From the NCBI GenBank assembly GCA_039679675.1, contig JBDKUN010000030.1:743-64742 (forward strand): 64,000 nucleotides of DNA, read 5' to 3'. The position numbers and the translations under genes were made by a program. The notes under the pieces were generated by a model. It saw nothing but the letters and a program-made list of their open reading frames with translations, had not been told where the DNA came from and did not search any database. Below are positions 41,099-62,020 of the stretch, piece after piece. Positions within the stretch are counted from its first letter, which is position 1. Each line of letters starts with the position of its first letter. Origin of the DNA: Armatimonadota bacterium. GTDB lineage: Bacteria > Armatimonadota > UBA5829 > DTLH01.

Positions 41099-41126
41099 CG
41101 TCACCCTGAACTTGATTCAGGGTCCA
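41099..41126. repeat. 28-bp hairpin repeat, copy 2
   Basis: Exact copy of 19302-19329 in the hydG-hydE spacer; also preceded by gcgtcaccatgaacaga / cgacgtcaccctgaac units. Confidence 0.8.
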
Positions 41127-41311
41127 TTTTTTCCTGGATGCTGAGTCAAGCTCAGCATGACGTTGTATCCAATGCTTCGAGTAGCACCCTATGCTTCGGG
41201 ATTCTTTTCTTCCCGAAGCACGAGTCTCCACTAATCCGTAGAGCTGGCTTGACGTTGTTACCTATCGAATCTCCATCAATCCCATCCCTGAATCCTGTAT
41301 CCTGTATCCTC

Positions 41312-47693: not shown

Positions 47694-48980
47694 CTATACC
47701 GTGTCTGTCCGGCCTGTCTTGCCGATACTCCGAACTAACAAAATGGCGGCTAGTGTTCCCAGTATGATTAGAACCAAAAGCGGAGTGTACGAGTCCAGAG
47801 TGAGAATCCCTATGCGGCCCGATATATGCTTCGCATGCTCAAGTATGAAACCCGCCAAAATCGGGCTCAAGCCGCCGATCAAGCCTGACCAGGCATAATA
47901 GAGCGCCATGTACCTGGTGCTATTATCTGCCGGTACCAGGTTCACGTACATAATCTGCAAGGAGGCAGTCGTATTCCCCGTCGTGAAAGCTCCTGAGCCG
48001 AACATTATCGCCGAAGCAGCCAAAAAACTCCACTCACTGTGCCTGGGCATCAGCATCAGAAAGATCGGGACCATCAGACTTAATCTCAGGCAAAACAGGA
48101 GCGCCCGCTTTCCCCCGTACTTATCTGCTGCCCATCCCCACACATAGCTGATCACACCACCCAGTGACGCGGCAATCGAGAGCAGCACGACATTTGCGGA
48201 TGAAATTCCCACCTCATGCGCGAAATAAAGAGGGAAGAAAGCTGCGATTCCAACAGTGAATGCAATTGCGCCGATTCCGAGGAGGTATCGCAGGAAGTTG
48301 GGGTCCCTGGCCGGATCGATAATATCCCTGAAATACCTTGTTTCCGATGAATCCACACTTTGAGGAGCGCCGCCCGGTATACGGGTTGAAGACCAGACCG
48401 CTATAAAGCCGAAAAATATGCCTATGGCCATCAAGAGCATGAATGAGTTCAAGGTGTCAGAGCGCCCGATTACATATCCGGCGAACCCAATCGATATTAT
48501 GGTTATAACGTTAGCTACCACGCTGTTCGTAGCAAAAAACCTGCCGCGTATGTCATCCGGTATTACTTCCTGAAGCCAGGGGTAAAACGCACTTTCCCCG
48601 ACCGCGCGGCATATGGCAAACATCAGGATAACAGCAGCAACGAAGGTAAAAGCACTGCCTGCGCCATACCGAAATAGCACCAATGGGGTCAAAAGCAGAA
48701 AGCATGTCACGATCTTTCGCGCGCCCCAGAAGATAACGAGCGTGCGCTTCAGCCCAAACCGCGCGATATGCGGCGCTATGAAGAGCGCTACGACGCCGCA
48801 GAACGGAAACAGAGAGAGAATGAAACCTATCCGGCTCTTCGGCAGGCCGAGCTTATCCAGAAAGAGGATAAACACATTTCCAAACACCGTCAGCGTCGTA
48901 AAGATGGTATTTGCTGCCGCGAAGGCGTAGTTCCACCTTAAGCTCCGGATTTTCTGGGCATACGTCAGCTGCTCAACCAT
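47694..48980 (-). CDS. MFS transporter
   Basis: 428 aa, 12 predicted TM helices, GxxxDKxGxR-like loop (WAADKYGGKRALLF). Confidence 0.75.
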   Translation of the reverse strand: MVEQLTYAQKIRSLRWNYAFAAANTIFTTLTVFGNVFILFLDKLGLPKSRIGFILSLFPFCGVVALFIAPHIARFGLKRTLVIFWGARKIVTCFLLLTPLVLFRYGAGSAFTFVAAVILMFAICRAVGESAFYPWLQEVIPDDIRGRFFATNSVVANVITIISIGFAGYVIGRSDTLNSFMLLMAIGIFFGFIAVWSSTRIPGGAPQSVDSSETRYFRDIIDPARDPNFLRYLLGIGAIAFTVGIAAFFPLYFAHEVGISSANVVLLSIAASLGGVISYVWGWAADKYGGKRALLFCLRLSLMVPIFLMLMPRHSEWSFLAASAIMFGSGAFTTGNTTASLQIMYVNLVPADNSTRYMALYYAWSGLIGGLSPILAGFILEHAKHISGRIGILTLDSYTPLLVLIILGTLAAILLVRSIGKTGRTDTV

Positions 48981-48985
48981 TTCAG

Positions 48986-49813
48986 TTATTTTCTGCCCTT
49001 TTCTGCTCCCTTTGAATGCCGAAGGTTGTGCAGCCCCTGGTTCAGGATGTGCAGCGGAGTAACCTTCGCTGCAAAATCCTGAAGCGGTTTTCTGGCTGAT
49101 ACGCTGACTCTTCGGAGTGCATACAAGTCATTATGCCAGATGGTTGTCCCACTGGATATTGCCAGTGCAGCTTTATAAGAGGCACTTGCCAGCCGCCTGA
49201 CACGGCCGTCGAAGTTCCCGTAAGGGTAACAGAGAAAGTCTACCGGCACGTTCAGCAATGACTCAAGAGCTTTCTTGCTGTCCGTCAGTTCTCTTGCTAT
49301 CTCTTCCTCTGTCAGTTCGGAAAGCCGTGGATGGCTTACTGTGTGAGCCCCAATTTCAAGCCCCGCATCCAGCCACTCACGGAGTTGATCGAGGTCCATT
49401 GTACGGCAGACCGGTCTTCCGGGCCGCTGCACCTCCCATTCATTTTGCTTGCCGATCCAGTCACTTATAACAAATACTATCGCTGTCATGCCGTGTTTTT
49501 TCAGCACAGGCATTGCGTTGGTGAAGTTATCCTCATATCCATCATCAAATGTTATGACAACCGGCTTTCGAGGAAGTGGAGTGCCTTTCGTAAGGTGATC
49601 GTGCAGCATACTCAGGTTGACCGTATGATACCCATGCGATGCCAGATATTCCATCTGGCGCCTAAAATCCTCAGGATGCACGCTCAGTCCGTCTCCGGGA
49701 AAATCCATTATGCGGTGGTACATCAGAATGGGAACTTCCCGTCTGAACCTAAGCCATAGATACATTAGGGCAGCTGATCCACATATTACTATCAAAATAC
49801 CAAATGGCATCAT
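48986..49813 (-). CDS. Polysaccharide deacetylase (NodB-homology, CE4) family protein
   Basis: VVITFDDGYEDNFTNAMPVLKKHGMTAIVFV (TFDDG motif), HTVSHP His motif, N-terminal TM anchor. Confidence 0.8.
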   Translation of the reverse strand: MMPFGILIVICGSAALMYLWLRFRREVPILMYHRIMDFPGDGLSVHPEDFRRQMEYLASHGYHTVNLSMLHDHLTKGTPLPRKPVVITFDDGYEDNFTNAMPVLKKHGMTAIVFVISDWIGKQNEWEVQRPGRPVCRTMDLDQLREWLDAGLEIGAHTVSHPRLSELTEEEIARELTDSKKALESLLNVPVDFLCYPYGNFDGRVRRLASASYKAALAISSGTTIWHNDLYALRRVSVSARKPLQDFAAKVTPLHILNQGLHNLRHSKGAEKGRK

Positions 49814-50970
49814 TATATTTTATCCGCCTTATGATGCTCTATCAGCACTTGATTATAGACCTGCTCAACACAGTCAGTCATCTGTTCAATATTAAATGAT
49901 TCAGCCACCCGTGTCCGGCCCTGCTGGCCAAGTTTCTTTCTCATATCTGGGTCCTTGCTCAACAGGTTCAGCTTCTCTGCCAATCCGTCTATATCTCCTG
50001 AAGGTATAAGGAAACCCGTGTGTCCATCTATCACAATCTCAGGTATACCCCCTACAGAGTAAGCTACAACCGGTTTCGCCATAGCCATAGCTTCAGCAAT
50101 AGCCAGTCCGAATGTCTCCTTATCAGAAGGCAGCGCCATAGCATCTATCGCATCGAGAACCGGAGTAATATCCACTAGATTTCCGAGAAAGTGCACGCGG
50201 TCCGTCAGTCCAAGGTTTGAAACCATTCTGCGCAGTCCGGGAAGGGCTTTCCCCTCGCCGGCTACAGCCAGGTGCCATGATTTTGCTTCAGGGCGCTCAG
50301 CCAGCAGGTGAATTAAATCTCTATGACCTTTATGGTTTTCTGAATAGATTCGCGCTATGATTCCGATAAGAAACCTGTCCTCCGGGATTTTCCATTTACG
50401 GCGAAACCCGGCACCTTGCCCGCGTGGAGTGAACCTTTCCATATCGATGCCGTTGTAAATGGTCACAAGCTTATCCTTGGGCACATTAGTGTTCGCTGCA
50501 GCCCAATCACTAAGGTACTGACTGACACACATCATACGGTCTGTCTGGGCAAGAACGACATCTGACGGTGAATGTCCAAAAAGGCTGTGAGCCGTCATCA
50601 CCCAGGGCAAGCCGGTTTGCTCACACATCTTCGCGACGCATTTGCCCGCTGTAGTCATGTTTGCATGGACCAGATCGACTTTTGCCCGACGCGCCACAAT
50701 CCGCAGCATCAGTGCGCCCAGCGGTTTGTAAAATCGCATGTTCACATAAAAATGAGTGATTCCCAGCTTATTAGCAATTGATTTTGCAAGAATCCCTCTC
50801 CCGGACGCAAGGATCACTCGGTAGCCGCGGCTCTTTAATGCGTGCGAGAGAGAAAGAACGCACCATTCAGCCCCGCCTATACGAAGTGAAGCTACTACAA
50901 GGAGCACTGTTGGCTTGCCCGGTAGAGAACCGCTCGAAGTCGTTTGTTCCTCACATTGACTGATAGACAT
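49813..50970 (-). CDS. Glycosyltransferase family 4 (GT4)
   Basis: EGFGLAIAEAMAMAKPVVAYSVGGIPEIV (E-x7-E GT4 motif). ORF starts with TTG at 51030; ATG at 50970 (MSISQ..) preferred; 1-bp overlap with deacetylase gene. Confidence 0.75.
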   Translation of the reverse strand: MSISQCEEQTTSSGSLPGKPTVLLVVASLRIGGAEWCVLSLSHALKSRGYRVILASGRGILAKSIANKLGITHFYVNMRFYKPLGALMLRIVARRAKVDLVHANMTTAGKCVAKMCEQTGLPWVMTAHSLFGHSPSDVVLAQTDRMMCVSQYLSDWAAANTNVPKDKLVTIYNGIDMERFTPRGQGAGFRRKWKIPEDRFLIGIIARIYSENHKGHRDLIHLLAERPEAKSWHLAVAGEGKALPGLRRMVSNLGLTDRVHFLGNLVDITPVLDAIDAMALPSDKETFGLAIAEAMAMAKPVVAYSVGGIPEIVIDGHTGFLIPSGDIDGLAEKLNLLSKDPDMRKKLGQQGRTRVAESFNIEQMTDCVEQVYNQVLIEHHKADKI

Positions 50971-51110
50971 CCGAGCATCCTGTGCTCCTCTTTTTTTAAT
51001 GCACAACATTCCTGCAGCGGTTCTCCTCAAGTCGTTATAGCTCGTTTGAATGAATAGATATTACATCAGTTAATGTTTCAGCGTAAAGCTGGGCTTGGGG
51101 TCCAAAGTAA

Positions 51111-51572
51111 TTAACGGGTGAATTCGATCAACCCAAGGCGGATGAGGCCTTCAACAGCAAATTTGTCCGCTTTGGTCTGTTTGTAGCGGCCGTTTCGCCC
51201 CTCCATGTGGTCGAGGTAGTGGGAGAACTCATGCAGGAATATCCCCACCATCAGGTGCTCAGCGCAGCTGAATTTCTCCGAACGGAGCTTCTGATAAGTC
51301 AACTCCCGCCCACGCAGGTCGGTCTTTTTGTAATATTCCGATGTCTTGAACGGCACTGTGACCGGATAACGGTTCGTGTGGTTTATCCTGAGCCGGATAA
51401 GCCTGCCGTCCGGCGTGGATTTTGTCCAGCGGTAGTACGTGCCGGATATGGAACGCCGAGACCCCACCGGACAGTATTTCACTTCGACAACCAGCCCGTC
51501 ATGGTCGTAGTCCGAAACAGACTCTTGAAATAAATGTTCGATGTTATATTTTGTGAGATTACGAATGATCAT
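51111..51572 (-). CDS. HExxH zinc-metallopeptidase-like small protein (SprT/DUF45-like)
   Basis: LHEFSHYLDHME contains an HExxH motif near the C-terminus; 153 aa; 14-bp overlap with the upstream membrane gene. Confidence 0.4.
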   Translation of the reverse strand: MIIRNLTKYNIEHLFQESVSDYDHDGLVVEVKYCPVGSRRSISGTYYRWTKSTPDGRLIRLRINHTNRYPVTVPFKTSEYYKKTDLRGRELTYQKLRSEKFSCAEHLMVGIFLHEFSHYLDHMEGRNGRYKQTKADKFAVEGLIRLGLIEFTR

Positions 51573-52815
51573 GTGGCCGGTAAATGCTTATTCCAATTAG
51601 TCCAAACACGAGTGCAAGGACAAATCCGAGGGCAAACGACTCTGCGATTGACGGGCCGAGCGTTATTGCAGCCTGGTTGGTAGTATTTTCGATGGTAAAG
51701 CTCGATTTCTGAACGAGCATGTAAAGCGGCGCAAATAGAGCCATAAGAACCGCGTAAGCTATGGCAATCCCGGCAGCAAGCTGCCCCTTTTTGACAGGCT
51801 TGTTCGATGTCTTTGCGGCGTGATGCCCTCCAAGAACGAGTGCCACGGCCGGAATGATAAGCGCGAGGTACGCGAGCGCCGGGACATGCTTCTTCTTGCC
51901 GTCCGTCTCGATTCCTCTGATGAGTCCGGCGCGCAGCTTGAACCCGCTTTCCTCATCGATAGTCGAAGACGCGCCTCCACGGACGGTCACTCCGTGCGAA
52001 ATGTAGTATGCAAGCCCGGACGCTGCAGGAAGGAGTGTCACAGCACTCTTGACCCGCTCGGTTTTTTCCGCTTTAGTGTGTCCTTTGAGTCCGAAGCCGA
52101 TGTATGCAGCAAACAGGAGGAAAAATATGAGCTGTCCGACCAGAAATGAGATCAGCGCGCCGCGTATCCATGCCGGAAGCCATGCATCTTTTCCGAAAAG
52201 GCCGTTTTTGATGGCTTTACAGCCGCCTAGTGCCCCAATTCCACCGAAAATTATCCCGAATATTAACCCATAGAATATCGTGCTGCCTATAGCAGGAATA
52301 AGTTTCGCTGCAATCAATTCGGGAGCGGGGTTCCATCCGCCTATTTCGAACTGCGGCAGATGGATGGCACCGGTCGTCGCCGTAAAGAACGGTCTTGCGA
52401 TCAAAAGGAAGATAACGTAAGGTATCGCAACGAGCGCTCCAGTCGTAAACCGGCCTGAGTCTTTTGCTCCGGCCAGCTTCGCGCTCGCCAGCCCTCCGAG
52501 CGCAAGCGCTATGGCCGGCACTACCGCCCACAGGGTCAGCGGCCATAAAATGTTCAGCGTCAGCCCCGGTATTCCTCCGGGCATACCGTTACCGGCTATA
52601 TTTATGTGGTGGATTGCGTAAAAGTTAAGCCCGGCACGGCCTATGAACTGGCTGATCGTCGATATTTTCCCAGATGGGATAATCAACCCAAGCCCAAGCA
52701 TTTGAAACCAGGCGCTCAACCCGAATCCCAATATGGCTGCGACGACCGCGCCCGATGCCGCGCCATAGACAAGCCTGACCCATCCTGGAGAGGCATTATT
52801 TTCAGTTTCCCGCAC
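51559..52815 (-). CDS. Polytopic Gly-rich membrane protein, unknown function
   Basis: 418 aa, about 10 hydrophobic helices; overlaps the HExxH gene. Confidence 0.5.
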   Translation of the reverse strand: MRETENNASPGWVRLVYGAASGAVVAAILGFGLSAWFQMLGLGLIIPSGKISTISQFIGRAGLNFYAIHHINIAGNGMPGGIPGLTLNILWPLTLWAVVPAIALALGGLASAKLAGAKDSGRFTTGALVAIPYVIFLLIARPFFTATTGAIHLPQFEIGGWNPAPELIAAKLIPAIGSTIFYGLIFGIIFGGIGALGGCKAIKNGLFGKDAWLPAWIRGALISFLVGQLIFFLLFAAYIGFGLKGHTKAEKTERVKSAVTLLPAASGLAYYISHGVTVRGGASSTIDEESGFKLRAGLIRGIETDGKKKHVPALAYLALIIPAVALVLGGHHAAKTSNKPVKKGQLAAGIAIAYAVLMALFAPLYMLVQKSSFTIENTTNQAAITLGPSIAESFALGFVLALVFGLIGISIYRPHDHS

Positions 52816-52844
52816 TACACAGTATCCTCGTATGAATTAATCGC

Positions 52845-53282
52845 TCAAAACGGCCATCTATCGGATCGGTAAAGTGCAAACGCCCCCGGTCCCGAAAGCA
52901 CGAGCGACAGCGCCATGGCTATAAGGGCAAGATTATACTCGAACCCGCCGCCTCCGGCAAAGAACCCTTTCCTCCCATGGATTAGGGCAACTGCCACAAC
53001 CATGTCTATGATTATTAAGACGCTCACAATCCGGGTGAATAGACCAATCACCAGAAAAAGGCCGCCAAGGAATTCCACGAGCGCTACAATCCATGCCGAA
53101 AATGCCGGCAGCGGAATACTGAGTGACTGCATAAACTGTGTAGTGCCGCTGATTCCGCCGCCGCCGAACAAGCCGAACAGCTTCTGCGCTCCATGGGCCA
53201 TAAAGATAATCCCAAGCACCAACCGGATAACGAACGGAGCCCAGATTGCGGCCGGTTTGAGATAAATCGAAAGATCAGGCAT
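52845..53282 (-). CDS. DoxX family membrane protein
   Basis: 145 aa, 4 TM helices, LGGLFLVIGLFTRI...ALIHG typical of DoxX. Confidence 0.7.
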   Translation of the reverse strand: MPDLSIYLKPAAIWAPFVIRLVLGIIFMAHGAQKLFGLFGGGGISGTTQFMQSLSIPLPAFSAWIVALVEFLGGLFLVIGLFTRIVSVLIIIDMVVAVALIHGRKGFFAGGGGFEYNLALIAMALSLVLSGPGAFALYRSDRWPF

Positions 53283-53478
53283 ATTTATCGCCTCCGTCTT
53301 CTGTTCCTACCATATTCGCTTCAGATAATATACCCGGCGGGCTGTAGATTAAAAGCCAAGATACGGTTTAGAGATGGCTGAGAGCCATGTGTCAGGTAAA
53401 AGCTGACCGCTATTTCTTGACATTGCAGCGCTATGTGCGGTTTCATGATGGGTATTACTTGGACAGCAGGAGGCGAAT

Positions 53479-54588
53479 ATGGCAGATTATAAAGCTAAGT
53501 ATTTCAGCAGAAATGAGGGTGAATTCCCGGATGAGATCACGATCATCGATACAAAGTATACCAAGGTCGATGACCTGCGTTACGGGACTAACCCGCATCA
53601 ATCAGCAGCTTATTACCGTCCCAAGGGGTCTTCAGGCCTGCCCTTCGCCGACATGGAGATACTGAAGACTGGTAAATCGGGGCTATCCGAGACCAACCTG
53701 TCCGATATTCATCACGGAATATCGATAGTCAAATACTTCGTCAACCCTGCATGCACGGTGATGAAGCACCTGAACCCAAGCGGCGCGGCGGTCTCTGGTG
53801 CCGGTGATACCCAGGCAGACGCCTACATCCACGCACGCGACGCAGACTCCCGCGCGGCGTTCGGAGGAACAGTCTGCTTCAACACACCTCTCGATGCAAC
53901 TACGGCTGAAGAGATTATGCAGTCGGTAGTCGAGGTTGTCGCTGCGCCGGACTTTGAAGATGGTGCGCTGGACGTGCTGAATGACTTCGCGAAGTTCAAG
54001 AAAAACAAAGAACTCCGCGCAATAAAGGTTCCGGGGATAGCTGCACTGCCGAAATTCGTCGGCGATCCCGCAGCACCGACTATCAAAGTCCTCGGAGACG
54101 GTTCCTTGATTCTTGCAGAGCCGCTTTTAACGAAGATTCGGACTGCGGCAGACCTTCAGCCTGCCGTAACGGACCACCCGAAGCAGGGACATTTCGAGAT
54201 AGCGCGGGTCCCTACCGAGCAGGAATACGACGATCTTATTTTCTCATGGTATGTGAACCTGAATGTCCGTTCGAACGGCATTGTCATCGCGCGCGACGGC
54301 GTAACGCTTGCGGTCGGCACGGGCGAGCAGGACAGGGTAGGCGCAGTCGAGCAGGCTATCGATAAGGCGAAGCGCAAGTTCGTCGGCGATGCTGATCTCA
54401 AGGGTGCGGTGCTGTCATCTGACGGCTTCTTCCCCATGCGGGACTCGATAGATATATGCGCTGCTGAAGGTATCACAGCAATCGTCCAGCCGGGCGGCTC
54501 CGTGCGCGACTGGGAAGTCATCCAGGCCGCGAACGAGCACGGCATTGCTATGGTATTCACTGATGAGAGGATATTCTCGCATCACTAA
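53479..54588 (+). CDS. Stand-alone AICAR transformylase domain protein (PurH C-terminal domain-like, no IMP cyclohydrolase/MGS domain)
   Basis: LRYGTNPHQ (compare PurH LRYGENPHQ), VVAAPDFE, C-terminal AIVQPGGSVRDWEVIQAANEHGIAMVFTDERIFSHH mirrors the PurH C-terminus; 369 aa. Confidence 0.7.
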   Translation: MADYKAKYFSRNEGEFPDEITIIDTKYTKVDDLRYGTNPHQSAAYYRPKGSSGLPFADMEILKTGKSGLSETNLSDIHHGISIVKYFVNPACTVMKHLNPSGAAVSGAGDTQADAYIHARDADSRAAFGGTVCFNTPLDATTAEEIMQSVVEVVAAPDFEDGALDVLNDFAKFKKNKELRAIKVPGIAALPKFVGDPAAPTIKVLGDGSLILAEPLLTKIRTAADLQPAVTDHPKQGHFEIARVPTEQEYDDLIFSWYVNLNVRSNGIVIARDGVTLAVGTGEQDRVGAVEQAIDKAKRKFVGDADLKGAVLSSDGFFPMRDSIDICAAEGITAIVQPGGSVRDWEVIQAANEHGIAMVFTDERIFSHH

Positions 54589-54604
54589 GGTAAGATTTAG
54601 AGTG

Positions 54605-54637
54605 TGGCCGGGCTGAAGTCCCGGCCTTTTTCTTTTT
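54605..54637 (+). terminator. Rho-independent terminator after purH-like gene
   Basis: ggccgggc-tgaagt-cccggcc hairpin followed by tttttcttttt, 17 nt after the stop. Confidence 0.7.
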
Positions 54638-54888
54638 GAACCGCGGAGACGCGGAATAATGGGAAACGCGGAAGGTAGAGATTTACAGCATTTACTCTTA
54701 TGCTACAAATCTCTGCCAATCTCTTTGGAGTGCGGAAGCTGGCGCTTCCGCTTTTCTATCGGCATACTCTATCCCGTCCTATGCGTCGGGCCCCGTGGAC
54801 CCACTGGACCACGGGGAGAAACACAATTTTCTACTAATTTGGCAAGCTAGCTTTGATGCAAACTACAAGCATCCGAAGGAAGGACGAT

Positions 54889-55470
54889 ATGGAAGATAAA
54901 TCAAGTTTGTATGATATGTTTCTCAAAGCTGAAAAGTTATGGAAAAAGAGGAAATCGGAAGACGAGAAGGAGAGCGTAGTTAAGGCAGTAAAGATTCTCA
55001 ATCGGATACTGAAAGAAGATCCTGATCATGTCCTTTCACTCATCCTAATGGGAGGTATCTTAGAATTTAGCAAGGGATGTTTTCAGGAACTAGGATTATC
55101 TGATGAGGCACAGGCATATACCAAAGCCTTGGAATACTGCGACCGTGCTTTAGAGATAGACCCATTGTCTGCTGAAGCCTGGGCTTGTAAAAGTGAAATA
55201 CTATTGCTGCGTATTGGACAGCCGGCGCAGGCCCTTGATGCAGTTAAAAAGGGTATGCAAGCCTTTGTAGGTGGTAGTCCAAGCCCGGAGGATGACCCAA
55301 AACTGCGGTTGTGGGTGGGGGAAACGCTATATTCGAACAAGGTCTGGGCACTTGCGGCTCTAGGAAGGGAAGATGAAGCTCGTGAGACGCTTGCGGAAGG
55401 TTTCCGGCACTATCCAGGCAGTAAATTTCTGCAAGAGACGGAAGAGAGATTCCTACCAGCAGGAAATTAG
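54889..55470 (+). CDS. TPR-repeat protein
   Basis: Start at ATG 54889 after AAGGAAGGA SD; tetratricopeptide-like helical repeats (AQAYTKALEYCDRALEIDPLSAEAWACKSEIL). Confidence 0.6.
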   Translation: MEDKSSLYDMFLKAEKLWKKRKSEDEKESVVKAVKILNRILKEDPDHVLSLILMGGILEFSKGCFQELGLSDEAQAYTKALEYCDRALEIDPLSAEAWACKSEILLLRIGQPAQALDAVKKGMQAFVGGSPSPEDDPKLRLWVGETLYSNKVWALAALGREDEARETLAEGFRHYPGSKFLQETEERFLPAGN

Positions 55471-55491
55471 CATAAAGTCTCCATTATTCCC

Positions 55492-55537
55492 TTTTCGCGT
55501 CTTTTGTGCTTCTTCGCGTCCATCGCGATTCGAAACA
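55492..55537. repeat. 45-bp direct repeat, copy 1 (ttttcgcgtcttttgtgcttcttcgcgtccatcgcgattcgaaaca)
   Basis: Matches 56593-56636 with 2 mismatches; the pair brackets the Mrr-like gene plus a repeat-element segment (about 1.1 kb). Confidence 0.7.
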
Positions 55538-55538
55538 A

Positions 55539-56345
55539 CTAGTAATCTATAGTTCCACGGCATGAAGGATAGGCAGTGCAACCCCAGAACTTGCTGCCTG
55601 CTCGGTTCCCACGGCGCGCAGTTCGAATCACCATTTGCCTGCCGCAAAAAGGACAATAAGGTGATAACGGCACATTGACGCTCTCTGCAGGCTGCGTCGA
55701 TTGATTTTTTGTCTGGACTGATCGGATCATTTCAGCCAATGTCCGGCCATCAATCAGCTTTACACCATTTTCCTTCGCGAAAACAACGGCATCAGAAGTA
55801 TATCTGCCGAAAGTGACAAATATGCCTTTGCTTCCCTGGTACATCTTGCTGTGAGTGAGGCCATGAAGCTCTCTAATCAGCGCCACACCTACCTTGGATG
55901 ATCGCCAGTGCTTACACTGTACAAGAGTCTGCTCTCCGCCTCGGCTAAGGACGATATCAATTCCCCCATCCGCACCGCTACCGGTCATGATTGCTCCATA
56001 CCCTTGCTTACGAAAAACGGCTGCAACAAGCTCTTCGAATTCGCGCCAACTCAAGTCCTTGATCGTGTCCAACCCGGTTTGTTTAGCAAGAAGCAATCCG
56101 CTGCTCCTTCTCTTCAATCCCGCTATAAGGCCCATTGCCAGAATCAAGCCTGCCGCCCATGGCGCAAACAGCCGTGACACACCACCCACTTCTTTTAGCA
56201 TTGGATTTATGCCAAATGATAACGGAATAACCTGGGACAGCATCAGGTAAATCGCAGCAGCCACACAAAGACAAGTCCACCAGGGTGCCACCACAAACAA
56301 ATTCTTCAAAACTGTGAATGCATCATCTGAACGGCGTTTTGACAT
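55539..56345 (-). CDS. Mrr-cat-type restriction endonuclease-like domain protein with C-terminal topoisomerase-type C4 zinc ribbon and N-terminal TM segments
   Basis: WREFEELVAAVFRKQGYGAIMTGSGADGGIDIVLSRGGEQTLVQCKHW (Mrr_cat D..E.K-like core); C-terminal CPFCGRQMV...CTAYPSCRG zinc ribbon; 2 N-terminal TM helices. Confidence 0.65.
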   Translation of the reverse strand: MSKRRSDDAFTVLKNLFVVAPWWTCLCVAAAIYLMLSQVIPLSFGINPMLKEVGGVSRLFAPWAAGLILAMGLIAGLKRRSSGLLLAKQTGLDTIKDLSWREFEELVAAVFRKQGYGAIMTGSGADGGIDIVLSRGGEQTLVQCKHWRSSKVGVALIRELHGLTHSKMYQGSKGIFVTFGRYTSDAVVFAKENGVKLIDGRTLAEMIRSVQTKNQSTQPAESVNVPLSPYCPFCGRQMVIRTARRGNRAGSKFWGCTAYPSCRGTIDY

Positions 56346-56432
56346 TAGAACATCCTTTGCATCATATTATTATTAAATATGAATGACACAAAGTGATTGT
56401 TCCATATCATGTATTTCGGAATCGCTTCATTG

Positions 56433-56574
56433 CTGCGGGAATTGATTCTGTGCATATCGCACAATTATCCGAAATCTGCCATTCCCGCAGCGTACCCCTC
56501 GTCCCACCCTTCTCCCGCAAGGGACAAATAGTGCTAAATTCCTATGTTTCGGGACCGCAGTTCGTCCCGAAACA
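56433..56574. repeat. Second copy of composite repeat modules
   Basis: ctgcgggaat-N38-attcccgcag (56433-56490) then cctcgtccc, then gtttcgggac-cgcagttc-gtcccgaaac (56547-56574); same module order as 31628-31813. Confidence 0.65.
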
Positions 56575-56592
56575 CGAGTTTCTATCAATCTC

Positions 56593-56636
56593 TTTCGCGT
56601 CTTTCGTGCTTCTTCGCGTCCATCGCGATTCAAAGC
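56593..56636. repeat. 45-bp direct repeat, copy 2
   Basis: tttcgcgtctttcgtgcttcttcgcgtccatcgcgattcaaag; ends at the rsmG stop codon. Confidence 0.7.
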
Positions 56637-57343
56637 GGCTTTTTGACGATTTTTGCGCCGTGGCGGGGAAACTCATCCGGTGTGGGCTTCTGTTTCTTGA
56701 TAACGACCAGGCTGCGCTCTATATCCGTGCCGGGGAGAGCAAGGCGGATAACTTCGGGGTGTCCGCCGCCAAGTGTTCCTATACCGGGTCTTGCGCCGTC
56801 GAGCTCGCTGTCTACACCAGGTCCTTTCATAGCGATAAACACGCCCCCTACCCTTACAAGCGGCAGGCAATACTCGACCAGCACCCTCATATCGGCAACA
56901 GCCCTTGCGGTGACTATGTTGTAGTGCTCTCTGTGCTCCGGTATCCGCCCTGCTTCTTCCGCGCGGGAATGCACAAGCTCGATATTGGAAAGATTCAGCC
57001 GTTGGCGGACTTCATCCAGAAAAGTCAGCTTCTTGTTTGTAGCTTCGATCAGCGTGACTTTGACATCCGGCCGCACAATCGCTATTGGAACACCCGGAAA
57101 CCCGGCTCCGGTCCCTACATCGGCAACTCCGTCGCCGTTTCGGAACCTGGCCGCCCTAAAGCATGAGAGCGAGTCGAGATAATGCTTCACACCTATCTCG
57201 CCGGGGTCAGTGATGGATGTTAAGTTGAACTTCTGGTTCCATTCCAAAAGAAGCTCCGTATATTCCGCAAACTTCTCCGCCTGTTCGTTATCTATCTTTA
57301 CTCCCAGTTCAAAAGCGCCATTAACAAGCCGTTCCTTGATCAC
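56630..57343 (-). CDS. rsmG: 16S rRNA (guanine527-N7)-methyltransferase RsmG (GidB)
   Basis: LLEWNQKFNLTSITDPGEIGVKHYLDSL and DVGTGAGFPGVPIAI SAM-binding motif; 237 aa. Confidence 0.85.
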   Translation of the reverse strand: MIKERLVNGAFELGVKIDNEQAEKFAEYTELLLEWNQKFNLTSITDPGEIGVKHYLDSLSCFRAARFRNGDGVADVGTGAGFPGVPIAIVRPDVKVTLIEATNKKLTFLDEVRQRLNLSNIELVHSRAEEAGRIPEHREHYNIVTARAVADMRVLVEYCLPLVRVGGVFIAMKGPGVDSELDGARPGIGTLGGGHPEVIRLALPGTDIERSLVVIKKQKPTPDEFPRHGAKIVKKPL

Positions 57344-57443
57344 ACAGCCCTCCGTCTCTCATTCACAATCTGTTTCAGATTATACCTGAAACTCATTAAT
57401 AGTATAACAAACCCTAAAGCAGTGGATTATAGATTAGCAGTGT

Positions 57444-57755
57444 TTGGGAAAAATAAAAATGCTCCATTTACTCAGCGGTTCCACAGACACGATTACCGCT
57501 TGCGATGAGTGTGGAAAGGAAGTGTTTCAGATGCCGATGATCTTCGATGCAGCTATGGGCCAGCTCATAAGAGAACGCCTGCAGCAGGACAAGCGCACAG
57601 CGGGAGTAACAGTCGAAATTAACTGTGCGGACGGATGCATCAGCCTGATCGGTGCAGTGGACTCGGAAGAACAGAAAAACACAGCGCTGTTTCTTATCGA
57701 AGGGCTGTCTGGAGTGAGGTCTGTAATGGACCAGATCATTATCAGACCCCACTGA
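57444..57755 (+). CDS. BON-domain protein
   Basis: GVTVEINCADGCISLIGAVDSEEQKNTALFLIEGLSGVRSVMDQI fits the BON pattern; 103 aa. Confidence 0.55.
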   Translation: MGKIKMLHLLSGSTDTITACDECGKEVFQMPMIFDAAMGQLIRERLQQDKRTAGVTVEINCADGCISLIGAVDSEEQKNTALFLIEGLSGVRSVMDQIIIRPH

Positions 57756-57766
57756 TTCTATCTTTA

Positions 57767-58813
57767 TTACTTGCTAAGTAGCGGAAGATAAGGCGACATG
57801 GCAAGCTGCGCCAGTAGGCAGCATACTGTCGACTCAGAACCCTGGTTCAAGTTGACACCCGACCTCATAAGGCCGTCGTAGCATCCGCCCGTTACAGGGT
57901 CATAGAGCGCTTCGTTGATACTGTTGCCGCCGAAGAACCAATCGAACGCAATCCTGGCCTGGTCAAGATAGTTGCGGTCGTTCGTAGCATCGTACGCTGA
58001 CAGGTTAGCCATGACTGACGCCATCGGATCGACCGCCTGCTGGTCAAACCAGGCTCTTTCCTCATTCTTGATGTACCAACCGTTGCAACCGATGGGATGA
58101 TGGACTCCATCTATATTGGTAACGCTGTTCAGAAAATCGAGACTGCGGGACGCCACGTCCAGATATTCCTGCTTTCCAAACACCTGATACGCGAGGAAGA
58201 GCGCTCTCGGCGGGATTCCATTGGAATAAGTCAGGTAGTTATCGAACCACGGCCAGTCATCCGTAGCGTTTTTGTGGAACGCTTTGCACATCGTATCTGC
58301 AAGTTTTCCCAGGTGCACGCGCACTGCATCCGCTTCGGGTTCGCCCTTCAGGTAGAAGTAGCATCCCAGTGCGGAATACGCATGTCCCCTGGTCCAGGTA
58401 ATGGCCGGGAGCCATCTTATAGCATCGTCGAACAGCCTGCGCGCAACTTTTTTTACATTTTCGTGTATGTTGGTTGCAAGCGCTTCTCCGCAGGCCCATA
58501 GAACCCTTCCGAAGCAGTCTTCGGACCCCTCATCGTCCAGAAATATCTGGTCGAACGACATGAAATTGTGGAACCGCTTGCCGGATGTCTGCGCATAATG
58601 CAGGAAACTCAAGTAAGTGCTGACCAGCCTGAGCATCCGCCTGTCACCGCTGCGTTCATATTCCTGCAGCGCAACGATCAAAGCGCGGGCATTGTCATCG
58701 GTGGTATAGCCTGTCCGTCTGTTTGGTATCGAATAAATGGCATGCTGGATAACGCCCGTGCGGTCCGTGAGCGTTTCCAGATGCTCAAGCACAATCGGTG
58801 GATAATCCGTCAC
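57767..58813 (-). CDS. (alpha/alpha)6-barrel glycoside-hydrolase-like protein, family unassigned
   Basis: 348 aa; TGYTTDDNARALIVAL and aromatic-rich helical repeats; 4-bp overlap with upstream GT4 gene. Weak. Confidence 0.45.
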   Translation of the reverse strand: MTDYPPIVLEHLETLTDRTGVIQHAIYSIPNRRTGYTTDDNARALIVALQEYERSGDRRMLRLVSTYLSFLHYAQTSGKRFHNFMSFDQIFLDDEGSEDCFGRVLWACGEALATNIHENVKKVARRLFDDAIRWLPAITWTRGHAYSALGCYFYLKGEPEADAVRVHLGKLADTMCKAFHKNATDDWPWFDNYLTYSNGIPPRALFLAYQVFGKQEYLDVASRSLDFLNSVTNIDGVHHPIGCNGWYIKNEERAWFDQQAVDPMASVMANLSAYDATNDRNYLDQARIAFDWFFGGNSINEALYDPVTGGCYDGLMRSGVNLNQGSESTVCCLLAQLAMSPYLPLLSK

Positions 58814-60144
58814 TGCTGAACCTCTACTGCATCTTCTTTCGGCGTTGTCTCAGCCGCGGCTCGTCTCCGCAGCAGGATCCTGTGGAACATGTCCAGATAA
58901 TCTATAGCAACATTGAACCACGCTGTCCGCCTGCCGAATTTGTAGGCCAGAGCTTCCATTTGCTCTCTCTTTGCAGGATTATCCAATAAATCTATAATGG
59001 CATCCGCCATAGCACCAGGATCCTTGAAATCTACCAGCATTCCTCTGCCGTCGGCCAGTATTTCCTCGGCGTAAAGATAAGGGGTAGATACTATAGCTTT
59101 GCCGCAACCCAACGCATAAGCAAGCGTGCCGCTTACGATCTGGTCTTTATTCAGATAAGGGGTAATATACACATCGGTTGCGCACAGGTATCTGACGAGC
59201 TCTGTGAGAGATAGGAAACGGTTGTTGAACCGAACATTGTTCTCCAAATTGTTGCGCCGGACAGTCTCGATCATCTCGTTGCGGTAAGTTTCGCCTTCCC
59301 AGGCTCTAACGCCGGGGTGTGTCTCACCGAGCACAAGGTAAAGCGCTTCCGGATATTTGGCAACCACGCGAGCCATGGCCTCTATTGCAAACTCTATACC
59401 CTTGCCGCGATTAATCAGGCCAAAAGTGGATATGATCTTGCGGTCAGCGATCCCCAGAGATCTCTTCACCGCAGCTGTCGATACTCTGTGAACGTTCGGC
59501 ACTCCGTGGTGGATAATCGTTATCTTCTTTGGGTCGATGTCGTATGTATCGAGCAGTATCTGCCGACCCGTGCGGACCATAACTACCACAACTTCGCAAA
59601 GGTCCGCCAGTTCCTGCAGCACCCGTTTCTGGTCCGGGTCAGGGTTATTGAGCACGGTATGCAGCGTAGCAACGGCTGGCTTTTTGAGGTTTTTGATCAG
59701 GTCGAGCACATACTCTCCCTGCGTGCCGCCGTAAATTCCATACTCGTGCTGGATACTGACGATATCGACTGTGGAATCGTTGATATACTTCGCCGCATCC
59801 AGGTAACTCTGCCGGTCATCGCGGAATATCTGAGCCCGGACTATCCTTCCGTAAGGCTCGATCTCTTCTTTCCGCTTAACGGCTATGACCGTCGGCTTGG
59901 AGAATGGGGTATACTTGGCTACTGAAGTCACCACGTCTTTTGTGAAAGTCGCAATACCGCATTCGCTTGGAGGATATGTAGCGACATACGCAGGCTCAAT
60001 CTTGTTCATCGATTCCTGGAGGAACTTGAACAGCTTATTGTCTTCGGCCTTGAGCCACCTTACCTCGTCTCTAAGGACATACTCCTCCGGAACATCTGTT
60101 TCATATGGCGATTTGCCATCGGGTTTTGTTTTATCTTTTTGCAT
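58810..60144 (-). CDS. Glycosyltransferase family 4 with N-terminal extension
   Basis: GT4 C-terminal domain (GLINRGKGIEFAIEAMARV...LVLGE...) and E-x7-E-like region; 444 aa. Confidence 0.7.
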   Translation of the reverse strand: MQKDKTKPDGKSPYETDVPEEYVLRDEVRWLKAEDNKLFKFLQESMNKIEPAYVATYPPSECGIATFTKDVVTSVAKYTPFSKPTVIAVKRKEEIEPYGRIVRAQIFRDDRQSYLDAAKYINDSTVDIVSIQHEYGIYGGTQGEYVLDLIKNLKKPAVATLHTVLNNPDPDQKRVLQELADLCEVVVVMVRTGRQILLDTYDIDPKKITIIHHGVPNVHRVSTAAVKRSLGIADRKIISTFGLINRGKGIEFAIEAMARVVAKYPEALYLVLGETHPGVRAWEGETYRNEMIETVRRNNLENNVRFNNRFLSLTELVRYLCATDVYITPYLNKDQIVSGTLAYALGCGKAIVSTPYLYAEEILADGRGMLVDFKDPGAMADAIIDLLDNPAKREQMEALAYKFGRRTAWFNVAIDYLDMFHRILLRRRAAAETTPKEDAVEVQQ

Positions 60145-60234
60145 AACTTTTCCGAAGCCAAGCGACTACCGCTTGACTCGCTGCGAGCACAAGAACTACT
60201 AAATTTGGATAATCTACGGAGCAATTAACGCGGT

Positions 60235-60585
60235 TTAAGGCGTAAGTGTGACTGCTGCTTCCGATTCATCCTCGAACAGGGGAAAAACCTTCTCCAAACC
60301 TGTGATTTCGAAGACTTTTCGGATCTGGTTGGAACTGCACACTACTGCGATCTTGCCGCCGCTCTCGCTGGCTCGCTTAAGACCTCCCACCAGTGTTCCC
60401 AGACCGGAACTGTCGATATATTCTACCCCAGCCATGCTGACCACGACACTCGGATGACCTTGCTCTATGACATCTATCATCGTATCTCTGAATTGGGCAC
60501 AAGTGTAAGAATCCAGTTCGCCAACTAACTCGATGATGGGGATGTCCTTCACCATTTTCGTCCTGATTCGCAAATCCATTTCCAT
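60235..60585 (-). CDS. STAS-domain anti-sigma factor antagonist (SpoIIAA/RsbV-like)
   Basis: Start at MEMDLRI; IIELVGELDSYTCAQFRD...VEYIDSSGLGTLV contains the conserved DSSGLG phospho-serine motif. Confidence 0.75.
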   Translation of the reverse strand: MEMDLRIRTKMVKDIPIIELVGELDSYTCAQFRDTMIDVIEQGHPSVVVSMAGVEYIDSSGLGTLVGGLKRASESGGKIAVVCSSNQIRKVFEITGLEKVFPLFEDESEAAVTLTP

Positions 60586-60933
60586 TATTCTGGCACTCCT
60601 TCTCCAGCAGGTAACGCGGACGTGTCGAGCGGCCGTCTGCGGGCTTGACTGCGATACGCACGAAGGCATCAGGTTGCGGGGCGATGTGGAACTGCCGCCA
60701 CATATTGAGTTTCAGCGTTCCTCATGCCTGAAACCCGTCCTCAAGATTTCCGGCAACAGCCAGAAATCTATAATTACTTATTCCTTGGGACAGTCCAAAT
60801 CGAAACATGACATCCTCGGCATCGTCTCGTCGGAGGAAGTTTATCATTTACGCAGGACAATGTCAACTGCACCCCCGCCAAATTGCACCCTCGCCAAATC
60901 TGATAGTTGACAGGTTATTGATGGGGCTAAATA

Positions 60934-61383
60934 TCATGCATACTGCGGAAACTCGTCTTTCAACCACCTACGCACGAGTTTATCGAACTCCTCTGCTTCT
61001 TTATAGAGTTCATCAGCTTCCGTTCTACTCACAACAGAAGATTGGTGATAAATGGCAGTGCTTCGTTTAGCTCGGCAGGTCTGGAAATAATCGGCGATTT
61101 CAGCAGTTTTATCGCCCATAATGTCAGGAAGTGCATTGAAGACTGCCCAATGATGCCCTTCACCGCGAGTTCTATAGCCTTTACATCGAAGTGGAATAGT
61201 CGAAAGCTGTAGAACAGCATCATAAGCAAGGGCAAAACGTCCTTCGGGAGAAAGCCCCTCTGCATTCGCATCCTGCAGTGATCGGGCAGCAACACGCAGC
61301 AGTTCTTGTATCTCACTTTTTGAGGTTTCCTGCTGAACTATATTGCCCCCATCCACCAAATCCTTAAAGCCCATTTTCATCAC
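60934..61383 (-). CDS. HEPN-like domain protein (putative toxin of HEPN/MNT pair)
   Basis: 149 aa helical protein with R-x5-HH (RTRGEGHH) candidate Rx4-6H motif; 20-bp overlap with upstream MNT gene. Confidence 0.5.
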   Translation of the reverse strand: MMKMGFKDLVDGGNIVQQETSKSEIQELLRVAARSLQDANAEGLSPEGRFALAYDAVLQLSTIPLRCKGYRTRGEGHHWAVFNALPDIMGDKTAEIADYFQTCRAKRSTAIYHQSSVVSRTEADELYKEAEEFDKLVRRWLKDEFPQYA

Positions 61384-61951
61384 CTATCAAGAACAGCTTC
61401 GGCGAGTTTATCAGTGAAGTTATGAAGTGGTCATCTTCGTTTTTACGGAAATTAAACTCATCTTCGGACATAACAATGGGGTTTATTACCCTGGACACAT
61501 TCGCTGACTTTAGAAGCGAAGTCAGCTTGCGAAGCGTTATGCTGCCGATGATAAACAAGTCTATATCACTTTCTGGTCTGACTTCACCTGTGGCAAAAGA
61601 GCCAAAGATGAATGCTGTGCGTATAGATTTGATTTCAGGTTGTAATGCTTCCTTTATGGCGTCAACCACACCAACAGTTTTAATGAAGATTGACCGAAGT
61701 TCAGGAATTATTGGACACAGCGGGTCTAGCTGATAATATGTCTGTCTGCCACTTGTTTCCTTCGTCAGGATTCCGGCTTTGAGTAGTTGGGCAAGCTCAC
61801 GCTGCACACTGCCTTGTGCAAGGCCAGTTTTTGCAACTAGCTCTCTGAGATAAAAACGCCTATTATCACCCAGAAGGAATATTTTAAGAAGATCAATTCT
61901 TGTTTTTGACTGTATAATGGCTTCCAGCATCTCTAGCATCTCCGTACGCAA
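61364..61951 (-). CDS. Winged-HTH + minimal nucleotidyltransferase (MNT) domain protein (putative antitoxin)
   Basis: FIFGSFATGEVRPESDIDLFIIG (GS-x9-DxD NTase motif); N-terminal ArsR-like wHTH. Confidence 0.75.
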   Translation of the reverse strand: MRTEMLEMLEAIIQSKTRIDLLKIFLLGDNRRFYLRELVAKTGLAQGSVQRELAQLLKAGILTKETSGRQTYYQLDPLCPIIPELRSIFIKTVGVVDAIKEALQPEIKSIRTAFIFGSFATGEVRPESDIDLFIIGSITLRKLTSLLKSANVSRVINPIVMSEDEFNFRKNEDDHFITSLINSPKLFLIGDENGL

Positions 61952-62020
61952 TATGCGTACAATTGTACCTTATTTGCGTACGATGTCAAGCTTCCACCCG
62001 CCAGAATGGTTACGCAATGG

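Follow-up and report, generated by a model that had tools for sequence, protein, structure and literature searches.

A duplicated piece of the rsmG 3' spacer beside an Mrr-like nuclease gene at a variable rsmG-purH locus in Armatimonadota

SCC elements use the 3' end of rlmH as their target. The locus described here resembles tRNA-gene islands and SCCmec at rlmH/orfX in that accessory cargo is bracketed by a direct repeat lying over an rRNA methyltransferase stop codon, and in that a related genome holds an empty site with one repeat copy. A wider comparison is offered by a survey of variable segments, of which 10-18% were flanked by repeats, most of them shorter than 30 bp (Touzain et al. 2010; PMC2884548). 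Small variable segments with direct repeats were attributed in that work to homologous or illegitimate recombination. Like those loci, the present one is a kb-scale, strain-specific intergenic segment with a direct repeat and without mobile-element genes.

The window, i.e. the whole 64-kb stretch of DNA that was analyzed, carries a direct repeat on its plus strand at 55493-55534 and 56593-56634. The copies are 42 nt long with 2 mismatches and lie 1100 nt apart from start to start; none of 100 shuffles matched this. With the next bases included, the copies measure 44-45 nt and have 3 mismatches, which is the "45-mer" that the initial annotation had described as bracketing a ∼1.1-kb segment, and the bracketing repeats are real. 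In a gapped alignment of the two copies the similarity extends over ∼59 nt at ∼86% identity (score 76, with 0/2000 shuffles as high). The features of the locus are as follows:

53479..54588, plus strand: purH-type gene (AICARFT/IMPCHase, Pfam)
54605..54626, plus strand: block D, the purH intrinsic terminator, a 7-bp GC stem followed by a T run
54627..56492: segment of ∼1.87 kb present in the window and missing from the sister genome (sister comparison)
54889..55470, plus strand: orphan TPR-repeat gene of 193 aa, convergent with the Mrr-like gene (TPR families, Pfam)
55474..55490, minus strand: B_L, a short dispersed module (GGATTAGTGGAGAYTYG type) next to A_L, with other copies at 31551, 41221 and 41266
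55493..55536, minus strand: A_L, the left repeat copy, beginning 4 nt after the stop of the Mrr-like gene
55539..56345, minus strand: Mrr-like nuclease gene of 268 aa (Pfam), the only ORF between the repeat copies
56361..56389, minus strand: candidate sigma-70-like promoter (GTGTCA, 17-nt spacer, TATGAT), by consensus match only
56430..56491, minus strand: large hairpin module (gctgcgggaatggcag ... aattcccgcagc) with inverted repeats, another dispersed intergenic repeat
56493..56523, minus strand: block C, native spacer, single-copy in the window and 93.5% identical to L002 6823-6853 of the sister genome
56540..56592, minus strand: B'_R plus a hairpin module (cgtgtttcgggac...gtcccgaaacatagg), a dispersed intergenic repeat inserted after A_R
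56593..56636, minus strand: A_R, the right repeat copy, which is the native rsmG 3' flank with its TGA stop (56630-56632)
56630..57343, minus strand: rsmG, encoding the 16S rRNA m7G527 methyltransferase (GidB, E = 1.6e-53)

The right copy encloses the rsmG stop codon (56630-56632), and A_L has CGA where this TGA would match. Read along the plus strand, the left copy starts 22 nt past the TPR stop and ends 4 nt short of the stop of the Mrr-like gene; A_L and B_L together make up nearly the whole 68-nt gap between these two convergent genes. As the initial annotation had stated, a single ORF (55539-56345, minus strand) lies between the copies and the segment includes a copy of a composite repeat. 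This copy of a dispersed intergenic repeat, located between the two 42-mers at 56400-56592, aligns to 31540-31770 with 74% mean column identity. The candidate promoter ends 15 nt upstream of the Mrr-like start codon.

Searches with half-patterns allowing 3 mismatches and with an nhmmer profile (next best E = 0.56) found no third copy in the 64-kb window. An inverted, degenerate third copy near purH (∼54634-54673), spotted by eye, was not significant (nhmmer E = 7.5) and was rejected. All copies lie at the rsmG-purH locus, two in 65.6 kb of the window genome and one in 20.7 kb of the sister, and no further copy was present in the ∼86 kb of both genomes. Searching JGI metagenomes and IMG/VR with the 23-nt core of the 42-mer likewise yielded nothing. 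With a half-site pattern two matches came up, about the number expected by chance, and neither resembles the repeat overall. In the sequence searched, the 42-mer is therefore not a common REP element or terminator, the possibility that had been raised against an insertion. The arrangement is also found in an independent Logan assembly contig (L001), which agrees with the window at every position over 9336 nt and runs across both copies. An assembly mis-join at the repeat is unlikely because the longest exact stretch common to both copies is, by our own count, ∼25 nt.

The closest relative found is a sister Armatimonadota MAG (L002/L093), whose rsmG is 93% identical. Its rsmG faces purH directly, with one copy of the 42-mer after rsmG and neither the Mrr-like nor the TPR gene. 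The nuclease gene, missing from this genome, is thus a lineage-specific extra, as had been proposed, and the relative without it has one repeat copy rather than both. The predicted form of the empty site, a TPR gene followed directly by rsmG, was not found, since the relative also lacks the TPR gene. The sister spacer is a clean run in the order A, B, spacer, C and purH terminator (D), and no remnant of the Mrr-like or TPR gene was detected in it. Two more distant relatives also have rsmG near purH without the extra genes, directly in L004 and with argS between them in L003.

Because the indel relative to the sister is 54627-56492 (∼1.87 kb), the repeats are not the edges of the genome difference. 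This segment comprises the large hairpin module, the Mrr-like gene, A_L and B_L, the TPR gene and the region upstream of the TPR gene. On one side, block D is the first native sequence beyond it and is identical at 22/22 positions to L002 6876-6897. On the other, A_R is followed by B', spacer and block C (56493-56523), all in native order, and the large hairpin module is the first window-specific sequence past block C. The left copy is internal to the extra segment. A_R is identical at 42/43 positions to the orthologous single copy of the sister (L002 6742-6785), and A_L departs from A_R at 2 positions and from the sister copy at 3. The similarity of the left copy reaches beyond A, since L002 6742-6803 matches 55536-55475 (A_L plus B_L) at 88.7% over 62 nt. 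At the boundaries 54627/56492, the only candidate target duplication was a 27-nt, 74% match of B-type modules at a spacing of 1869, and it was not accepted because B is a dispersed module.

Intergenic DNA in these genomes is a mosaic, built of short repeated modules that insert independently of one another. The hairpin module of 56540-56592 is missing at the corresponding sister position and from the left copy, and the sister has its own 30-nt insert between the rsmG stop and A, with TTTGA on its flanks. The next relative (L086, rsmG 80% identical) carries the B module and has a different sequence where A would be. The sister has also undergone deletions nearby, retaining a remnant of an MFS gene and having lost the glycosyltransferase and deacetylase genes found at 47725-51126 of the window.

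The rsmG-purH spacer is a variable spot in this Armatimonadota lineage. An MNT/HEPN toxin-antitoxin pair ∼5 kb away (60875-61998) is also missing from the sister, and a similar duplication flanks it: ∼29 nt of native promoter sequence are present in two diverged copies, with a score that 8/2000 shuffles reached. The sister instead carries a PDC-S11 candidate defense gene between purH and DoxX. GC3 is 0.49 in the Mrr-like gene and 0.42 in the TPR gene versus 0.57-0.63 in neighboring genes. The TPR protein has no homologue besides itself in the protein database searched.

Our best explanation, held with about even confidence, is that foreign genes were gained in the rsmG-purH spacer by non-site-specific recombination that duplicated native spacer. 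We infer both the gain and its recombination route. On this reading the event is an ordinary strain-level gene gain and involves no new kind of mobile element. The lineage of the window would have acquired ∼1.87 kb of foreign DNA with two genes, the Mrr_cat/zinc-ribbon nuclease gene and the orphan TPR gene. The "45-mer" would then be the best-conserved core (A) of a native rsmG 3' spacer with the order A, B, spacer, C, and not the terminus of an element. At least 60 nt of this spacer (A, B and the start of the spacer) would have been duplicated during the insertion event or events, so that rsmG and the nuclease gene each came to have the same 3' flank. Duplication of the rsmG 3' region by recombination, which the initial annotation had listed as its alternative, describes the locus better than an att cassette does. 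The route may have been a Campbell-type or homology-facilitated integration, with the spacer as the homologous anchor. It could also have begun with a local tandem duplication into which genes were inserted, the TPR gene later overwriting the remainder of the second copy, or the left copy could be templated filler where two foreign pieces join. No intermediate genome with the Mrr-like gene only or the TPR gene only was found, and one event is therefore not distinguishable from two.

The 42-mer itself is unusually well preserved. A differs from the sister at 1/43 positions, compared with ∼25% (0.19-0.32) at four-fold sites (P ∼1e-3 to 1e-6), and such strong conservation hints at a function of its own. 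The divergence of the two copies is uneven, with 2/42 differences in A versus 6/18 in B (Fisher P = 0.007). Such unevenness is not expected from one simple duplication, and the duplication model does not account for the conservation of A either. Each of the three known copies of A directly follows a stop codon, and two of them serve as the spacer of a convergent gene pair. An 8-nt palindrome (ATCGCGAT) can be read in the 42-mer by inspection, as can a pair of GACGCGAA direct repeats with a spacing of 19 nt. No stable or common structure emerged when the three copies were folded on both strands (z -1.8 to +0.1), and a scan found no intrinsic terminator at either copy, the only stem being 5 bp without a U tract. 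The repeat had no Rfam match; at E ≤ 1 there was only a chance PrrB/RsmZ match elsewhere. A small ORF in the repeat (MDAKKHERRE...) was rejected as coding because all three copy differences change the amino acid and the sister insertion shifts its frame relative to rsmG.

Machinery for mobility was sought on both sides of the locus. No recombinase is present among the Pfam-annotated genes from the TPR gene rightward past the window end, in purH and DoxX on the other side, or in 20.7 kb of the sister locus, although one encoded elsewhere in the genome might act in trans. There is no tRNA near the locus; integrases, transposases and tRNAs are lacking for 9 kb on one side and past purH/DoxX on the other. 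A blastn comparison of the 2-kb region with PLSDB plasmids and INPHARED phages gave no match to known mobile DNA. The imperfect palindrome of attC sites with RYYYAAC/GTTRRRY cores is also absent; such cores are lacking in the 42-mer, whose folding is weak, and no integrase accompanies it. Inspection of A showed no dif-like palindromic architecture.

Three other explanations have to be weighed against a gain with spacer duplication. The copies could be attL and attR of a small site-specific element at the rsmG 3' end, with the recombinase lost or acting in trans, similar to a CIME or pseudo-SCC. Direct repeats that bracket one accessory gene, one of them overlapping the stop of a conserved rRNA methyltransferase gene, are what such an element would leave, and the initial annotation had proposed an att-like cassette. 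That proposal holds insofar as a single-copy relative without the nuclease gene exists. Furthermore, the polymorphisms split like those of hybrid att sites, the empty site agreeing with the right copy in the rsmG-proximal bases and with the left copy in the distal flank (B, no hairpin). Speaking against the proposal are the boundaries, which are not the repeats, and the lack of an integrase, a tRNA or an att-like structure. The right copy does not look as an attL junction should, because native B', spacer and C (56493-56523) follow it in the order of the empty site, and because this inner flank is native the duplication reaches well past any core. With the TPR gene missing from the empty site as well, the repeats do not bound the real indel. 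Neither an integrase, a transposase nor a tRNA lies nearby, and A is without attC-like or dif-like palindromes. The MNT/HEPN insertion duplicates a wholly different sequence, which argues against a sequence-specific enzyme, and the 42-mer is missing at other homologues of the Mrr-like gene. We consider a site-specific element very unlikely.

The polarity of the event is a separate matter, and gain and loss were told apart by parsimony against distant outgroups, with one close relative only. If the arrangement in the window were ancestral, the sister would have lost the 1.87-kb segment by deletion and the repeat would be an older, unrelated duplication. Between two genomes, a single deletion costs no more steps than a single insertion, and the sister does have demonstrable deletions nearby (the MFS remnant and the genes of 47725-51126). 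Against this, its spacer is clean (A, B, C, D) with no remnant of either gene, and in the outgroups L004 and L003, where rsmG neighbors purH, both genes are missing. The atypical GC3 and the absence of close homologues for both genes are as expected of recent arrivals, and recombination between the A copies would leave the TPR gene, which the sister does not have. Ancestral presence followed by loss is therefore quite unlikely. The remaining explanation is that the 42-mer is itself a functional or mobile short sequence, and that the two copies are not by-products of gene insertion. It could be a conserved 3'-end cis element (a protein-binding site, a Rho-dependent terminator or an insulator separating the convergent genes) or one of the many small intergenic modules of this genome, present in low copy number. 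Conservation of A far beyond the neutral rate (1/43 versus ∼25%) favors this, as do the placement of all three copies right after stop codons, two between convergent genes, and the palindrome and paired direct repeats within A. Modules do insert independently here, as with the hairpin after A_R and the 30-nt sister insert, and A itself would have come as an insertion in a common ancestor because L086 has B but not A. However, the copies are confined to one locus (65.6 kb + 20.7 kb), the core is unmatched in JGI metagenomes and IMG/VR with half-site matches that look like chance, and no stable structure, terminator-like site or Rfam match was found. The similarity of the left copy also runs past A into B and spacer, as for a copied block. 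We regard this explanation as unlikely.

A bolder proposal builds on the gain with spacer duplication. Defense-type cassettes in this lineage might enter spacers by a recombinase-free or still-undescribed route in which the target is duplicated (tens to >100 nt) and the 3'/5' control sequence of a neighbor is inherited. Host homologous recombination would then allow excision and re-integration, and the 42-mer would be a co-opted functional 3'-end element. We give this proposal only a slim chance. Candidate cassettes for a recombinase-free route are the Mrr-like gene, the MNT/HEPN pair and possibly the Mrr-like homologue on L084.

The architecture described for the nuclease in the initial annotation was recovered, with a TM anchor, an Mrr_cat domain and a topoisomerase-type zinc ribbon; its further description as NERD-like was not, as no Pfam NERD match was found at E ≤ 0.01. 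In the 268-aa protein, Pfam identifies Mrr_cat (PF04471, E = 2.1e-32, profile positions 2-115 of 115) and a C-terminal Zn_ribbon_Top1, a Top1-type C4 zinc ribbon (E = 1e-8). No N-terminal Pfam domain such as the winged-helix Mrr_N was found; residues 1-80 form two hydrophobic helices, and the hydropathy profile places hydrophobic segments at residues ∼16-46 and ∼56-78, predicted as two N-terminal TM helices. Residues D126, D130, Q143 and K145 and the four zinc-binding cysteines are invariant across 15 homologues. With these residues, full-length ends and a promoter-like site, the nuclease looks functional. As judged from its sequence, the protein is probably active as a nuclease that faces the cytoplasm from an anchor in the inner membrane, working as a solo defense-type or Type IV-like enzyme.

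The best PADLOC matches, PDC-S02 (E = 1.5e-17) and ZorD (E = 1e-15), are at the domain level only. The PDC-S02 model is not matched over its full length, and the match covers the nuclease domain at profile positions 192-308 of 334. No relative of solved structure was found by sequence at E ≤ 0.01. Homologues are numerous: a search at E ≤ 1e-10 found 975 proteins, nearly all carrying the PF04471 + PF01396 annotation, from Armatimonadota, Phycisphaerae, Hydrogenedentota, Verrucomicrobia and others. The nearest is 54% identical, and the homologous genes stand alone in unrelated genomic contexts. The neighborhoods of the three closest homologues have nothing in common that would indicate a conserved partner gene, and homologues at other loci do not carry the 42-mer.

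If the reading as a gain with spacer duplication is right, the locus illustrates cleanly, on a small scale, how uncultured bacteria can acquire individual defense-type genes without recognizable mobile-element machinery. Such genes would land between convergent housekeeping genes and bring along a copy of the neighbor's flank. The rsmG-purH-DoxX neighborhood is flagged as a strain-variable hotspot, in which two sister lineages of the same study have different nuclease genes, and the widespread family of putatively membrane-anchored Mrr_cat/zinc-ribbon proteins is marked as a candidate for defense testing. A 42-nt non-coding sequence conserved well above neutral expectation is also identified. 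The practical value is modest, and no new class of element is revealed.

In comparison with tRNA-gene islands and SCCmec, the locus differs in having no recombinase, cargo of only ∼1 kb, indel boundaries off the repeats, and a duplication that runs into native spacer inside the right copy. Compared with the loci of Touzain et al. 2010 (PMC2884548), its repeat is longer than most, with 42 nt at 95% identity (∼60 nt with the diverged extension), above the RecA threshold quoted there, and one repeat copy is internal to the variable segment.

The protein shares with E. coli Mrr and Type IV restriction enzymes the Mrr_cat PD-(D/E)xK domain with its D...QxK catalytic residues, and its gene is solitary, without a methyltransferase partner, as is usual for Type IV. 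It departs from E. coli Mrr in that predicted N-terminal TM helices replace the winged-helix domain and a Top1-type C4 zinc ribbon is found at the C terminus; only its catalytic domain matches the PADLOC mREase_IV models (E = 1e-9). The ∼115-aa nuclease domain is likewise shared with PDC-S02 and Zorya ZorD, but the remaining architecture is different, the ZorD match falls at profile positions 938-1068 of 1071, and there are no Zorya partner genes at the locus. A literature search did not find experimental work on the uncharacterized ∼250-350-aa "restriction system protein" family (TM + Mrr_cat + Zn_ribbon_Top1), which has the same length and domain order. The invariant PWW at the start of TM1, the D-G-D and VQCK motifs and the four cysteines of that family are also present. 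Sequence comparison thus assigns the 268-aa protein to this family, from which nothing material appears to set it apart.

The direct repeat reported in the initial annotation as a 45-mer (here A, 42 nt) was confirmed. Its left (A_L, 55493-55534) and right (A_R, 56593-56634) copies differ by 2 mismatches at a spacing of 1100 nt, and shuffles of the window gave zero matches equal to it. In a gapped alignment, the similarity widens to ∼59 nt at ∼86% identity, a score reached by 0 of 2000 shuffles. Read on the - strand, both copies lie directly 3' of a stop codon: the rsmG TGA (56630-56632) falls inside A_R, while A_L begins 4 nt past the TAG of the Mrr-like nuclease gene and carries CGA at the position equivalent to the rsmG stop. 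Over 9336 nt that include both copies, an independently assembled Logan contig (L001) shows no difference from the window, and the arrangement is therefore not peculiar to one assembler. The proposed search for other copies found no third one in the window (half-patterns with 3 mismatches allowed; nhmmer profile built from the three known copies), no match in JGI metagenomes or IMG/VR, and a single copy in the 20.7 kb of the sister genome examined. A soil metagenome contig (JGI Ga0247825_10077435, 132-160) carries GGACGCGAAG, 9 nt and AGACGCGAAAGG directly after a stop codon, then inverted CTTTCGCGTG; this pattern is probably a coincidence, as ∼2 chance matches were estimated and 2 found.

By its rsmG protein, the window belongs to Armatimonadota. 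The nearest genome is the MAG JBDKSP010000089 (loci L002 and L093), with 93% identity in rsmG and differences at 0.19-0.32 of four-fold degenerate sites; the two lineages come from source runs with adjacent accession numbers (SRR15035648 and SRR15035646). The next relatives, L086, L003 and L004, show rsmG identities of 80%, 67% and 63%. A 197-nt spacer separates rsmG from the convergent purH in L002, and neither the Mrr-like nor the TPR gene is present. The difference from the window covers 54627-56492 (∼1.87 kb) and contains both genes and the left repeat copy.

Order of elements from rsmG to purH, in rsmG orientation
L002: rsmG; 30-nt L002-specific insert (TTTGA-flanked); A; 17-nt module B; short spacer; 31-nt block C; purH terminator D
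Window, in order:
rsmG
A_R, 42/43 positions identical to the L002 copy
B' with an inserted hairpin module, then spacer
56523-56493, block C, 93.5% identical to L002
large hairpin module, then promoter region
55539-56345 (-), Mrr-like gene, 268 aa, the single ORF between the A copies
A_L + B_L, 62 nt, 88.7% identical to L002, hairpin module absent
54889-55470 (+), TPR gene, 193 aa, convergent, then its upstream region
54626-54605, D (purH terminator)
purH

As rsmG directly faces purH in L004 and is separated from it by argS in L003, the gene order lacking the Mrr-like and TPR genes is probably ancestral. The initial annotation had anticipated an empty site in which the TPR gene is directly followed by rsmG with one repeat copy. 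L002 does have a single copy and no nuclease gene, but the TPR gene is missing there too, and rsmG faces purH.

In the clade formed by the window and L002, A is native sequence flanking rsmG on its 3' side. In L086, the rsmG stop and a B-like module are separated by different sequence, so A arrived in the shared ancestor of the window and L002. Conservation of A is striking: A_R and the L002 copy disagree at 1/43 positions, against ∼25% at neutral sites (binomial P = 1.3e-3 to 1.3e-6 by rate used); the final 75 nt of rsmG contain 6 differences, read from the sequences. At A, a terminator scan found no terminator, folding found no stable or common fold, and Rfam gave no match; in a small ORF within A, all differences are amino-acid-changing. 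Divergence between the two copies is uneven (A 2/42, B 6/18; P = 0.007). The best explanation is that the hairpin module has replaced B in the right copy, that A is under constraint, or both.

Two readings of the repeat had been proposed, a nuclease cassette between attL/attR-like copies and a recombinational duplication of the rsmG 3' region. The cassette failed two of its three defining tests and is unlikely. An attL junction should run from host into element, whereas the right copy runs into native B', spacer and C in empty-site order, and the TPR gene is likewise missing from the empty site. No recombinase or tRNA was found near the repeat, and the 42-mer is absent from Mrr-like homologues at other loci. 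A better fit is that native spacer, at least 60 nt of it, was duplicated while foreign DNA was gained; the duplicated stretch possibly extended from A to C, its second copy being later overwritten by the TPR gene. The duplication could have arisen by single-crossover or homology-facilitated integration with the spacer as anchor, by insertion of the foreign genes into a local tandem duplication, or by templated filler at the joint of the two foreign genes, the 68-nt gap between them being nearly exactly A + B.

A live rival is that L002 lost the segment rather than the window lineage gaining it. The 428-aa MFS-type transporter gene survives in L002 as no more than its two ends and a 30-nt island (11775-11866 versus window 47725-51126), and L002 lacks the polysaccharide deacetylase and glycosyltransferase genes next to it; L002 has thus undergone deletions in this neighbourhood, which keeps loss in play, set against the probably ancestral order in L003 and L004. 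The favoured account takes the Mrr-like gene as a lineage-specific extra and the repeat as duplicated native, conserved rsmG 3' spacer linked to its gain.

The annotated architecture of the nuclease also held: two hydrophobic helices close to the N terminus, Mrr_cat (E = 2e-32) and Zn_ribbon_Top1 (E = 1e-8). The protein is a member of a large uncharacterised family with this combination (975 matches at E <= 1e-10). Residues invariant in an alignment of 15 homologues include PWW (TM1 start), D126, G128, D130, V142, Q143, C144, K145 and four Cys; both sites, nuclease and zinc, look intact. Each helix is bordered by basic residues (KRR at 3-5 and 78-80), which under the positive-inside rule would put the catalytic domain on the cytoplasmic side. 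Judged from sequence, the Mrr-like and TPR genes are foreign in origin. GC3 is 0.49 and 0.42, respectively, versus 0.57-0.63 in five neighbouring genes. The nearest Mrr-like homologue is 54% identical, and the three nearest lie in unrelated neighbourhoods with no partner in common; the TPR protein has no homologue besides itself in a database of 5.8 billion proteins. At another locus, L084, a 53%-identical homologue (728-1534) and a 47-aa ORF lie between 71-nt direct repeats (271-340 and 1780-1849; 79% identity, E = 2e-11), the left one inside the upstream gene's coding region. This is a second case of a gene of this family between duplicated host sequence.

Its surroundings also support viewing the locus as a variable hotspot. 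Apart from several small indels, L002 is colinear with the window. An MNT (NTP_transf_2)/HEPN toxin-antitoxin pair at 60875-61998 is missing in L002 (2455-2535); its flanks (∼61985-62012 and ∼60878-60905) are a diverged duplication of ∼29 nt of native sequence with a TTGACA -35 box, an alignment score reached by 8 of 2000 shuffles. Apparently the inserted operon uses the left copy, and the native STAS gene the right one. Conversely, L002 carries a 346-aa gene between purH and DoxX (8248-9288, = L093 12248-13288) that the window lacks (empty site 53396-53404), and it seems to have inserted into the loop of a small hairpin that is seen in the window. The gene product aligns over almost the full length with PADLOC's candidate defence family PDC-S11 (E = 6.5e-36) and also gives a weak NucS_C-like match.

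Intergenic regions of the window are mosaics of short repeated modules (31540-31770, 39688-39800, 41190-41282, 54700-54860 and 56400-56592; also 19264-19329 and 41081-41126), and the segment between the A copies also holds a dispersed repeat recurring at 31540-31770. The module types are the B module GGATTAGTGGAGAYTCG, the cttcggga...tcccgaag and gctgcgggaat...attcccgcagc hairpins, the CCCCGTGGTCCGGTAGGTCCAC repeat and the CACCCTGAACTTGATTCAGGGT hairpin; kin occur in L086 and possibly in L082. The L002-specific insert AGGGAGCCGTCAGCCATCAGCTGTCAGGT (6715-6748), which separates the 42-mer from the rsmG stop, has a TTTGA duplication at its edges and is similar to a module near window 39637-39652, suggesting that such very small modules generate short target duplications when they insert. 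Nucleotide identity to L002 is uneven, at 88.6% (53404-54629) and 87.6% (51126-53396) on the purH side and 91.6% (56629-60874) on the rsmG side. At four-fold sites, purH differs by 0.32, rsmG by 0.22 and the C5-epimerase-like gene by 0.19. A possible cause is mosaic ancestry, the recombination breakpoint lying at the variable spacer.

No solved structure matched the Mrr-like protein by sequence. E. coli Mrr has a winged-helix domain, which the Mrr-like protein lacks, and the PADLOC models PDC-S02, ZorD and mREase_IV match only its nuclease domain; the protein could plausibly act alone at the membrane as a defence-type or Type IV-like nuclease. The repeat length, its high conservation and a second flanked insertion nearby are mildly unusual. 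Both components belong to known kinds: the nuclease is a solitary member of the Mrr_cat family, and the locus is a small variable segment with a direct-repeat flank, comparable to those described by Touzain et al. 2010.
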